Positions 16,651 through 17,741 of a stretch of DNA of 64,000 nucleotides are shown here, piece by piece. Numbering within the stretch: the stretch's first letter is position 1; the number at the start of each line of letters is the position of its first letter. This DNA is from an uncultured Gammaproteobacteria bacterium. GTDB taxonomy: Bacteria; Patescibacteriota; Patescibacteriia; 2-12-FULL-60-25. Under the pieces are notes generated by a model that saw only the letters and a program-made list of their open reading frames with translations, made no database searches and was not told the DNA's origin. The stretch is from NCBI GenBank assembly GCA_964582475.1, contig CAZOQS010000004.1:63489-127488 (forward strand), in the 5' to 3' direction. A program made the translations under genes and the position numbers.

Positions 16651-16747
16651 AGGTTGCTCGGTTCTCTAAGCTCTGGCTTAATATGGGCGACTCGAATAGG
16701 AATGTTCGAGAAACGAGGACAAGTTCGCTCGAGAGGAGACGAGGACG

Positions 16748-17635
16748 ATGGCGCTGAACAATCTCGCACAGCGGTTCGTGGTGGCTAGTGTTGCTATCCC
16801 GGCGCTTCTGGGAGCGCTCTACTTCCGACAGGGGATCATCTGGTTCGTCCTCTGTCTGGTCTTCGCCCGTCTGGCGGCGAAAGAGTTCCTGGCGCTGGTC
16901 GCGCCAGACGAACCGGAGTCGACGGGCTACCACCCGCTGTTCTACCTCCTGTATGGAGGGGTGTTCGTCACACTCTTCCTGGCAGTGTCGCGGCACAGCC
17001 TGTTCGGCCTGCACTTCGAGGGGCTGCTCCCGCTGCTCTATGGCGGCCTGATCCTCGCGGTCGCAGTGCTCCTCTCCATCCTGATCTTCCCGCCCCTGCT
17101 CACACAGAAGCGGTTGAAGATCGGTGGCCTGGCGCTCGGGCCCTTCTACCTCGCGGGGCCCTTCGCTCTGCTCGCGCTCATTCGGCTGTACGGTACGTCG
17201 GCCGAGGGAGCGGGGCTCTGCATCTTCACGCTGTCAGTCGCCTGGCTCGGGGACTCGGTCGCCATGCTCTTCGGCAAGACGTTCGGCGGTCCGAAGCTCT
17301 ACCCGACCGTCTCGCCGGGGAAGACCTGGAGCGGCGCCGTGGGCGGGCTCATCGGCTCGGCCTCGGTCGTGCTCTTCGCCAAGCTGCTCTTCCTGCCCAG
17401 CCTCCCGGTCGGGAAGGGGATCGCGCTCGCGCTCTTCGCCGGCGCCTTCGGGCAGCTCGGTGACCTGTGCGAGTCAGTTCTCAAGCGTACGACCGGGGTC
17501 AAGGACTCGGGCAGCTCGCTGCCGGGCCATGGAGGCTTCCTCGACCGCGTCGATGCGCTCTTGTTCGTGACCCTGGTGGTCTTCGGCGCGCTCCAGTCGG
17601 GCTGGCTCGGTTTCTCGTTGCCGTCCACTCGTTAG
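16748..17635 (+). CDS. cdsA: Phosphatidate cytidylyltransferase (CDP-diglyceride synthase), high-GC
   Basis: CdsA signature [27 protein letters not shown]. Multi-TM protein. 42/60 G+C in row 17341-17400. AGGAG at 16734-16738 upstream of the ATG. Confidence 0.88.
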   Translation: [295 protein letters not shown]

Positions 17636-17741
17636 CGCTGATCGACTACCGGAACAATCAACCCACCTCTCCGGCCCTCGGCTGGAACGATGACGCACCT
17701 CTCGCTTCCGTTCCAACGAGGGCCGCGTCATATTCAAATAC

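Follow-up and report, generated by a model that had tools for sequence, protein, structure and literature searches.

How did a complete cdsA gene come to stand antisense between the ribosomal protein genes rplK and rplA of a CPR bacterium, and has it changed anything for the genes on either side? The window, by which we mean the whole stretch of 64,000 nucleotides that was analysed, carries rplA on one side of cdsA and rplK on the other, both on the minus strand. A sequence-only reading of this DNA had described a conserved pair broken by a foreign insert with rewired neighbours. The features on which it was built (the open reading frame, the row with 42 of 60 G+C, the AGGAG, the hairpin, the terminator and the rplA promoter) are all present at the positions it gave. 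The elements of the locus are the following.

15852-16559, minus strand: rplA (ribosomal protein L1), 235 aa; PF00687, E 7e-58
16569-16601, minus strand: conserved rplA 5' leader GTGGGACTCCGCTCAAACGGAGGTTTGCACCAC, 33 nt, near-invariant
16622-16650, minus strand: rplA promoter TTGACA-17-TATTAT, 11/12 consensus positions
16654-16682, plus strand: probable cdsA promoter, weakened; -35 TTGCTC, 17-nt spacer, -10 CTTAAT
16734-16738, plus strand: Shine-Dalgarno (SD) AGGAG, 9 nt upstream of the cdsA ATG
16748-17635, plus strand: cdsA, phosphatidate cytidylyltransferase (CDP-diacylglycerol synthase), 295 aa, PF01148
17672-17725, plus strand: cdsA 3' stem-loop, GC-rich, -32 kcal/mol, conserved
17743-17777, no single strand: bidirectional intrinsic terminator, common to the convergent cdsA and rplK, 14-bp perfect stem
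17792-18214, minus strand: rplK (ribosomal protein L11), PF03946 and PF00298
18268-18816, minus strand: nusG, NusG domain, upstream of rplK
18846-19214, minus strand: secE, SecE domain, beyond nusG

CdsA enzymes convert phosphatidate and CTP to CDP-DAG and pyrophosphate (EC 2.7.7.41), and the window gene is a complete, true CdsA by enzyme family, as had been claimed. Its product matches PF01148 (CTP_transf_1) with an E-value of 2.4e-50 and 172.3 bits against a curated cut-off of 24 bits, and residues 8-281 align to model positions 2-260 of 264, which is a full-length match. The CdsA signature segment at residues 243-269 (nt 17474-17554) is intact. A regular expression of the C-terminal signature, which we take to be PROSITE PS01315 (S-x-[LIVMF]-K-R-x4-K-D-x-[GSA]-x2-[LIF]-[PGS]-x-H-G-G-[LIVMF]-x-D-[RK]), matches residues 243-268. 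The TmCdsA structure 4Q2G is recovered with an E-value of 7e-19. TmCdsA binds Mg2+/K+ through the Asp-Asp dyad D219 and D249, and its active site further contains D144, K167, E222, K226 and D246 (PMC4083444). These residues align to D169, K192, D239, E242, K246, D266 and D269 of the window protein, and all seven are invariant in an alignment of 14 sequences. The AF2 model (pLDDT 77.6, pTM 0.81) contains nine long helices. The top four Foldseek matches are 4Q2E/4Q2G with probability 1.0 and TM 0.61-0.73, while the next match has an E-value of 0.07, so that only 4Q2E/4Q2G fit the model. With the NCBIfam equivalog PRK11624 for the E. coli-type CdsA, the product reaches 113.5 bits and stays below the cut-off of 385. 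This shortfall reflects distance from the enterobacterial type and is not a family criterion.

GC steps sharply at both ends of the insert, as it would if a high-GC contig had been joined into a CPR contig during assembly, a concern that the sequence-only reading had raised itself. The exact window protein is found on 16 contigs, six of which we examined in full, and the same arrangement is present in L001-L008 and L103, in at least 10 independent assemblies. Searching the protein database with a profile and scanning metagenomes extended this set by a single strain (L103) and by no further cdsA-bearing species. At least 10 samples, assembled independently and with different assemblers, reproduce the arrangement together with whichever junctions the contig covers, three haplotypes co-diverge with their flanks, and orthologous arrangements exist in two other species. 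A chimera is excluded on these grounds, the remaining probability being practically nil.

In composition as in phylogeny, the gene is foreign to its CPR host and was therefore horizontally acquired. With GC of 0.66 and GC3 of 0.87, cdsA lies at z = 6.7 against host ORFs; GC3 is 0.546 +/- 0.049 across the window's remaining 52 ORFs and 0.49 to 0.63 in its native membrane proteins, and the host genome has 52% GC. The row 17341-17400 counts exactly 42/60 G+C. The SD of cdsA is informative because SD cores are rare in the window: a 4-nt core of any sort precedes 9 of 57 ORFs, and a strong AGGAG or AGGAGG precedes all of the high-GC3 ORFs (5/5). There are four more high-GC3, SD-bearing single-gene islands in the window. 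A donor in common with a second high-GC island, a lipoprotein-like ORF of 355 aa (2242-3309), was considered and rejected, since the homologues of that ORF are itself and one relative at 78%. An extra 176-aa ORF with a GC3 of 0.92 lies in the rplK-rplA gap of L092, and Pfam gave no domains in the 355-aa ORF nor in the extra ORFs of L092 and L096.

The search for the donor clade led to a Myxococcota-type group and bears out the claimed origin outside the host. In 5.8 billion clustered proteins, the window CdsA has no relatives between 97% and 48% identity, and no sequence, same-sample assemblies included, is more than 52% identical to any of three CPR alleles (the window and two sister species, see below). 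The nearest non-CPR homologues are 44-48% identical. In distance-based (NJ) trees, the window CdsA groups with the top 65 homologues in 100/100 bootstraps, and all named homologues are labelled Myxococcaceae, Myxococcales, Polyangiaceae or Deltaproteobacteria. Those with checked context (P0002, P0006, P0053, P0130, L107) show an uppS-cdsA(-gcvT) setting, and the contigs whose DNA was available have 65-69% GC; donor-type cdsA has GC of 0.66-0.69 and, where measured, GC3 of 0.81-0.92. We infer that the donor was a high-GC, SD-using, Myxococcota-related bacterium, whose phylum rests on MAG labels because the sampled donors reach only ~50% identity. A phage vector was rejected, as IMG/VR has only relatives at 26% identity.

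The transfer appears to be old. Two sister species, L092/L093 (P0009) and L095 (P0032), also carry a cdsA convergent to rplK. Their L11 is 92-93% identical to that of the window, and NusG of L092 is 94% identical, but their CdsA only 46-48%. The cdsA units of the window, L092 and L095 share a homologous promoter, a homologous 3' hairpin and the CGC-TGA stop context; in the window, cdsA ends with TAG and the next in-frame codons are CGC TGA. L009, L010 and 12 other Uhrbacteria-like loci have no cdsA at this position, and L009 and L010 nest inside the five-species clade with 100% support. By this synteny comparison, the cdsA unit is orthologous across species and not recent. It is ancestral to the genus-level clade yet acquired from outside, and we regard the insertion as a real but fairly ordinary old gene transfer. 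From the earlier claim, acquisition from outside thus stands, and a recent, private event does not. The sequence-only reading had also reasoned that a cdsA carried by close relatives would be ancestral instead of acquired. This is half the case: with an orthologous unit in two sister species, the gene goes back to the ancestor of the clade, yet its source lies outside.

The three CPR CdsAs are mutually 47-51% identical and 50-52% identical to a Myxococcaceae homologue, and they are monophyletic in only 77-79% of NJ bootstraps. CPR-CPR identities that are no higher than CPR-Myxococcaceae identities would also be expected from recurrent capture, with the rplK-rplA gap or its hairpin as a hotspot at which each CPR species gained or replaced its cdsA separately and more recently, from a different member of a high-GC donor lineage, possibly its own host. 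The GC3 of 0.80-0.87 and the strong SD in all three species (AAGGAGG in L095) despite near-saturated synonymous sites point in the same direction, as do the four further islands of the window and the insertion-prone site, which holds the 176-aa ORF in L092 and other genes in L012, L015, L016, L017 and L021. However, with homologous promoter, 3' UTR, hairpin and stop context, the same nucleotides would have been hit repeatedly, in the same orientation and by the same gene. The CPR CdsAs do form one clade at the bootstraps given, none of the 5.8 billion proteins, same-sample assemblies included, matches one of these alleles at more than 52% identity, and the junctions lack a recombinase or repeat signature. 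We consider recurrent capture unlikely.

The signals around cdsA were compared across the same species. Upstream of the gene, L092 and L095 have TTGACC-17-TCTAAT, positionally homologous to the candidate at 16654-16682 of the window, which is degenerate and lies under the threshold of the consensus scan. On this homology, 16654-16682 probably drives cdsA. The 3' hairpin folds with z = -5.05 (0/200 shuffles as stable) and is kept in L092 and L095, and in its consensus fold one pair is fully compensated (G-C to A-U), besides several G-U changes. L009, which has no cdsA, contains a degenerate relic of the hairpin that no longer folds. A dispersed REP/MITE-like repeat was rejected, the hairpin being single copy in the window. 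The terminator at 17743-17777 consists of inverted repeats that pair perfectly over 14 bp, with T-runs on either strand, and all relatives, cdsA-less ones included, have a terminator at this place after rplK. An Rfam scan of 14000-24500 at E <= 1 gave tRNA only and no match for the hairpin or the rplA leader. At the insert junctions, flanking direct or inverted repeats do not exceed chance, and we find no target-site duplications, terminal repeats or mobility genes; with neither recombinase nor repeats there, we reject a mobile element or gene cassette, be it an IS, an integron cassette or an integrative island. The closest recombinase (19370-21088) is part of a different island, located at tRNA-Pro, which is absent from strains still carrying cdsA.

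Rewiring of the neighbours is contradicted by the cdsA-less relatives L009 and L010. Their rplK-rplA gaps of 245 and 183 nt already contain the terminator after rplK, an rplA promoter (TTGACA-17-TATTCT/TACTCT) and the invariant rplA leader GTGGGACTCCGCTCA.ACGGAGGTTTGCACCAC. The rplA promoter of the window, the only promoter-like match in the 2.7 kb scanned, is conserved in L009, L010 and L092. It had been described as acquired or retained, and retained is the correct term. Nor is the broken pair special. Across the wider Uhrbacteria-like group, the two genes often lie 0.5-2.9 kb apart with assorted genes between them, or are not neighbours, and an L1-binding leader immediately ahead of rplA is known in other phyla (PMC3616713). 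The insert seems to have landed in an existing gap with its neighbours not rewired. No rewiring is needed because this gap already lay between the terminator of rplK and a promoter and leader that serve rplA independently. With a terminator and a promoter between them, rplK and rplA therefore form two transcription units.

The start of rplA is most likely the ATG at 16559, which gives 235 aa and aligns with the relatives; the alternative TTG at 16607 (251 aa) falls within the conserved leader. This leader is near-invariant in the window, L092, L009 and L010, while adjacent intergenic DNA varies. Its single-sequence fold is unremarkable (z = -0.7). L1-binding RNAs are located directly before rplA in Actinobacteria, Chloroflexi, Cyanobacteria and Firmicutes, and their consensus upstream of rplA/rplK is a 6-12 bp stem with an internal bulge containing a G-A pair and an unpaired A (PMC3616713). 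The leader is a candidate for such an autoregulatory L1-binding stem, and it is native rather than part of the insert.

The acquired gene is under purifying selection. Between strains, cdsA has a pN/pS of 0.19 with pS similar to the flanks. Across species, dN is ~0.5 with near-saturated synonymous sites and neither frameshift nor internal stop, and all species and strains have an intact reading frame. These values, the invariance of all catalytic residues and the conservation of SD and 3' hairpin with its fully compensated pair stand against a passenger or decaying cdsA, a neutral relic with expression and function gone. Such decay could be read from the degenerate promoter of the window species (TTGCTC/CTTAAT), the loss of the gene in two relatives, the premature TAG two codons ahead of the ancestral TGA and the partner enzymes not seen in the window. 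Nevertheless, we hold it to be very unlikely.

Polarised synonymous changes in cdsA amount to 11 GC>AT versus 1 AT>GC, compared to 46 versus 30 in the native flanks. Between species, fourfold sites are saturated or nearly so, both in cdsA and in native non-ribosomal genes, and the GC3 of cdsA is still 0.80-0.87 in all three. This is somewhat above a simple amelioration model, for which our rough estimate is 0.70-0.85 depending on the choice of clock genes. Selective maintenance of the high GC3 is ruled out: because synonymous changes run 11:1 towards AT, it is decaying. The same drift bears on whether cdsA could be a native CPR gene, vertically inherited and odd in composition only, for example by selection for GC-rich codons. 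Such a gene would be expected to be common to the three related species with conserved flanks and to be under purifying selection, as observed. But apart from the drift towards AT, the SD is atypical for the host, neither L009 and L010 nor any of the more distant Uhrbacteria-like loci that we examined has the gene at this position, and all non-CPR neighbours in the top group whose context was checked lie in a Myxococcota-type uppS-cdsA setting. A native origin is highly improbable.

The sequence-only reading had seen a possible metabolic gain in such an acquisition. Within the 64-kb window, we find no enzyme that makes phosphatidate or consumes CDP-DAG. The lipid-related matches of the window are a DedA/VTT-domain protein and a weak UbiA-like match. 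A full-text literature search gave nothing specific on cdsA in CPR. CPR bacteria are described as lacking complete lipid biosynthesis and taking their membrane lipids from other cells (PMC7242380). CdsA may re-activate phosphatidate from scavenged host lipids for the cell's own head-groups. A more speculative and rather doubtful extension is that cdsA and the other high-GC SD islands reflect gene flow from the physical host, an unsampled high-GC Myxococcota-like bacterium, with CdsA making CDP-DAG from scavenged phosphatidate or lysolipids, from which these epibionts would build head-groups of their own. If true, their dependence on foreign lipids would no longer be complete, and cdsA could serve to mark host association in an uncultured genus related to Uhrbacteria.

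We conclude with good confidence that the locus holds a probably functional one-gene cdsA unit that came by old horizontal transfer from a Myxococcota-related donor into an existing gap and was inherited vertically afterwards. The region ~16651-17731 would be self-contained, comprising a weak promoter of sigma-70 type, the SD, cdsA itself and the 3' stem-loop, and its product would be a functional CDP-diacylglycerol synthase. The donor gene was presumably the housekeeping cdsA of a uppS-cdsA operon. It would have entered an ancestor shared by a whole genus-level clade of Uhrbacteria-related CPR bacteria, landing antisense in the intergenic gap between the rplK terminator and the rplA promoter and leader. 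Vertical descent under purifying selection in at least three species lineages and loss in at least two would have followed, and the foreign GC3 would still be in the course of slow loss. A foreign CdsA kept by purifying selection is a testable case of partial lipid autonomy, namely head-group re-synthesis from salvaged phosphatidate. It suggests that a foreign gene can settle harmlessly in the most conserved ribosomal string where a terminator-promoter gap pre-exists, and that a donor-type strong SD and GC-rich codons can last long in a host that hardly uses SD. Current understanding is not overturned, as HGT into Patescibacteria is already documented (PMC12455944).

Compared to bacterial CdsA in general, the window protein is alike in length (~280-295 aa), in its nine predicted helices and predicted fold, in the signature, and in the Asp-Asp metal dyad with accessory Lys, Glu and Asp. 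It is only 26-27% identical to TmCdsA, reaches no more than 48% with any non-self protein beyond its own 90% cluster, and differs by an extra 8-residue insertion (~residues 62-69), which is missing in 12 other aligned homologues, its own 97% cluster representative excepted. In most bacteria, cdsA adjoins uppS, dxr or rseP, which the window gene does not. Its nearest relatives, with the same GC and GC3, are the uppS-cdsA genes of Myxococcota-labelled MAGs (P0002 Myxococcaceae; P0053/P0125 Myxococcales; P0006; P0130). There, cdsA is a housekeeping gene that overlaps uppS in a conserved DnaJ-uppS-cdsA-gcvT arrangement, in genomes of 65-67% GC, whereas the window cdsA stands alone with its own promoter.

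With the rplKA (L11-L1) operon, the window shares the order secE-nusG-rplK-rplA and, like operons with L1 autoregulation, a conserved leader before rplA (PMC3616713). In E. coli and B. subtilis rplKA is co-transcribed, in contrast to the two units of the window clade, with or without cdsA. The small genomic islands described for HGT in Patescibacteria (PMC12455944) are similar in that a foreign metabolic or lipid gene entered a streamlined genome by an old transfer from a donor that was not recovered. The window differs from them as a single-gene unit with no mobility genes inside a ribosomal-protein cluster, and by keeping a donor-type SD in a host hardly using SD. Its donor is of a Myxococcota-like kind that does not occur in the donor table of that study (PMC12455944).

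The phosphatidate cytidylyltransferase gene cdsA separates two ribosomal-protein genes of the opposite strand, and the locus is laid out as follows.

15852-16559, minus strand: rplA, flanking cdsA
16650..16622, minus strand: rplA promoter TTGACA-17-TATTAT, the sole promoter-like site within 2.7 kb
16734-16738, plus strand: AGGAG, ending 9 nt ahead of the cdsA ATG
16748-17635, plus strand: cdsA, product of 295 aa
17743-17777: bidirectional terminator, a perfect 14-bp inverted repeat with T-runs on either side
17792-18214, minus strand: rplK, flanking cdsA; nusG and secE come next

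The row 17341-17400 holds 42 G+C in 60 nt, the signature peptide of CdsA covers residues 243-269, and the hairpin at 17672-17725 folds with -32 kcal/mol (z = -5). Everything that the sequence-only reading had observed here, from open reading frame, signature and G+C-rich row to AGGAG, hairpin, terminator and rplA promoter, is fully confirmed. Sixteen contigs encode the exact CdsA protein, and 3 more encode a variant of 97% identity. Eight same-species loci (L001-L008), derived from different samples and assemblers, reproduce the arrangement to whatever extent each contig reaches rplA, rplK, nusG and secE, and L103, which represents a third haplotype (94% identity), does so too. The locus is therefore no assembly artefact.

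Along its entire length the 295-aa protein fits the Pfam family CTP_transf_1 (PF01148; E 2.4e-50), and phmmer matched TmCdsA, the CdsA of known structure (4Q2G), at E 7e-19. The residues essential or important in TmCdsA, D144, K167, D219, E222, K226, D246 and D249 (PMC4083444), align to D169, K192, D239, E242, K246, D266 and D269, which are invariant in a 14-sequence alignment. The AlphaFold2 model (pLDDT 77.6, pTM 0.81) contains nine long helices, and its only matches in the PDB are 4Q2E and 4Q2G (probability 1.0, TM 0.61-0.73), with the next entry at E 0.07. Between two strains, cdsA differs by 16 synonymous and 8 non-synonymous changes (pN/pS 0.19), and its pS (0.065) is similar in magnitude to the values for the genes on either side (0.09-0.13). 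We conclude that the protein is a bona fide CdsA, and it is predicted to be functional.

The proposed foreign origin of the gene holds. With a GC of 0.66 and a GC3 of 0.87, cdsA stands at z = 6.7 against the 52 other ORFs of the window (GC3 0.546 +/- 0.049), the native membrane proteins lying at 0.49-0.63, and in 100/100 NJ bootstraps CdsA clustered with its top 65 homologues, apart from the next group. All named homologues are labelled Myxococcaceae, Myxococcales, Polyangiaceae or Deltaproteobacteria. The neighbourhood DnaJ-uppS-cdsA is conserved in all five non-CPR members checked (P0002, P0006, P0053, P0130 and L107), with gcvT downstream in four of them. Where DNA of non-CPR homologues was examined, the contigs have 65-69% GC, and cdsA GC3 is 0.81-0.92 where measured. 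In a database of 5.8 billion proteins no homologue falls between 48 and 97% identity to the window CdsA, and a search for a phage carrier of cdsA found none. On a 3.6-kb contig (L096:477-3006), an operon of plsC (PF01553), a gene for a 237-aa membrane protein and cdsA (P0059) has a GC of 0.64-0.69 in flanking DNA of 42-58% GC. P0059 branches with the CPR-type cdsA genes in 55-58% of NJ bootstraps, and this operon is possibly a larger relative of the lipid cassette that entered the CPR clade.

The host is placed by its ribosomal proteins. The best relatives of L1 are MAGs labelled Candidatus Uhrbacteria or Patescibacteria (58-67% identity), and L009 and L010, two relatives without cdsA, are much closer species representatives (84-87%). 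Together with the sister species L092 and L095 they form a tight clade with the window species (100% bootstrap, L11+NusG+L1), its members being 0.02-0.11 apart and other Uhrbacteria lying at distances of 0.33-0.43. The ribosomal-protein clusters of L009 (CAZMOB010000002.1), L010 (CAYQAL010000008.1), L011, L018 and L019 are 58-87% identical to the window organism and group with Uhrbacteria; judged from these sequences, their public MAG title "uncultured Gammaproteobacteria bacterium" looks wrong. Divergence between strains over 14341-19214 (window against L001, L003, L006 and L103) is a mosaic: the AlaX-like gene matches L001 exactly and departs by 4% from L003, secE departs by 14% from L001 and not at all from L003, and nusG resembles L103 more closely than L001. 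Such a pattern points to frequent homologous recombination inside the species.

The acquisition is old and not private to this species, which speaks against reading it as recent: cdsA with homologous flanks is present in sister species whose CdsA proteins are only 46-48% identical. The nearest protein, P0009 (48%), belongs to L092/L093, a sister CPR species with L11, NusG and L1 identities of 92%, 94% and 88%, where cdsA again separates these two ribosomal-protein genes and runs convergently with rplK. P0032 of L095 (46%; L11 93% identical) is likewise convergent with rplK. Homologous in the three species are a promoter about 65 nt upstream of cdsA (TTGACC-17-TCTAAT, in the window TTGCTC-17-CTTAAT), the post-stop spacer with CGC-TGA in common, the long 3' hairpin, whose consensus fold has one fully compensated pair, and the rplK terminator. 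The window gene stops at TAG followed by in-frame CGC TGA (17633-17641); L092 and L095 stop at the homologous CGC TGA, so that the window TAG is a recent nonsense change trimming one residue. In L092, a 176-aa ORF (679-1209, GC3 0.92, own terminator, no Pfam match) lies between the rplA and cdsA promoters and was therefore added later than cdsA; a 341-aa ORF beyond secE (4033-5058, GC3 0.74) has no Pfam match either.

NJ trees recover the three CdsAs as one clade in 77-79% of bootstraps. L009 and L010 lack cdsA yet belong to the five-species clade, and in L009 a decayed version of the hairpin persists that has lost its fold (z = -0.2). The history needing the fewest events is a single gain with one or two subsequent losses. 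The rival explanation is recurrent capture, in which each CPR species took its own cdsA separately. Its main argument is composition: the three species have cdsA GC3 values of 0.87, 0.80 and 0.84, and by a rough estimate this leftover excess sits at the upper edge of a simple decay model, a mild tension with a single old gain. When synonymous changes were polarised on two short branches with L103 as outgroup, cdsA showed 11 GC>AT vs 1 AT>GC (46 vs 30 in the native flanks); the gene is therefore ameliorating under host-like mutation pressure. At fourfold sites between species, cdsA and native non-ribosomal genes are at or near composition expectation; ribosomal-protein genes keep their similarity.

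The idea that the insert rewired its neighbours fails, because L009 and L010 already have a terminator behind rplK and, ahead of rplA, the same promoter and a 33-nt leader that hardly varies; cdsA entered an existing terminator-promoter gap. More distant relatives carry different, unrelated cargo in this gap: a DUF6479-like protein, an MGMT DNA-binding-domain protein, pyrF and a pyrE-like PRTase (L012:3149-6001), DUF5671 membrane proteins (L016:5349-6001, L021:1408-3745) and hypothetical proteins (L015:4021-6001, L017:5115-6001). In L011, L013, L018, L019 and L022 rplA is away from rplK. This Uhrbacteria-like lineage thus tolerates insertions between rplK and rplA. The leader, GTGGGACTCCGCTCAAACGGAGGTTTGCACCAC (16569-16601, minus strand), is almost invariant in four species, and the adjoining intergenic DNA diverges. 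It had no match to an Rfam family. L1-binding RNA immediately ahead of rplA is known in several phyla (PMC3616713), and by analogy the leader is a candidate L1-binding autoregulatory site.

Only 9 of 57 window ORFs have any 4-nt SD core, native starts typically showing YCTATG or TTATG context. AGGAG/AGGAGG precedes all five high-GC3 ORFs, 2242-3309, cdsA, 21785-22348, 23483-23947 and 61565-62302 (upstream regions 2220-2241, 16734-16738, 21766-21784, 23462-23482 and 62303-62324), so that high GC3 plus SD marks foreign-type single-gene islands in this genome. The L095 cdsA likewise bears an SD of this type. The 2242-3309 ORF (plus strand, near tRNA-Gly 3840-3914; GC 0.68, GC3 0.90, AGGAGG) encodes a 355-aa lipoprotein-like product with signal peptide and lipobox (...IMGC). 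It is essentially an orphan: besides the ORF itself, 5.8 billion proteins yielded a single 78% relative, encoded at the corresponding locus of a related strain (GC3 0.91); the longest opposite-strand ORF, 2146-3393, was rejected as a high-GC antisense artefact. The 61565-62302 ORF (minus strand, 245 aa, GC3 0.76, AGGAGG, hydrophobic C-terminal segment, no Pfam match) is a further such island. A 4.67-kb integrative element (19390-24056) occupies the 3' end of tRNA-Pro(ggg) (19315-19391). Its large serine recombinase (19370-21088) overlaps the tRNA end, and the rest of its cargo comprises two peptidase genes, one VanY/M15 and one M23 (GC3 0.73), along with hypothetical ORFs and one that is His-phosphatase-like (GC3 0.74). 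The window, L001 and L002 share the element; in L003 its place is taken by 0.6 kb of other DNA, and no recombinase follows secE in L005 and L008.

No phosphatidate-making or CDP-DAG-using enzyme was found in the 64-kb window, so the physiological role of CdsA is one we infer: retained, it would permit CDP-DAG formation out of salvaged phosphatidate. CPR bacteria have been reported without complete lipid synthesis, their lipids probably being taken from other cells (PMC7242380). We conclude that cdsA, a member of an ordinary enzyme family, was acquired horizontally by a CPR genus long ago and settled in a gap that the ribosomal cluster already had. Horizontal transfer into Patescibacteria is documented, with a lysophospholipase among the cases (PMC12455944).
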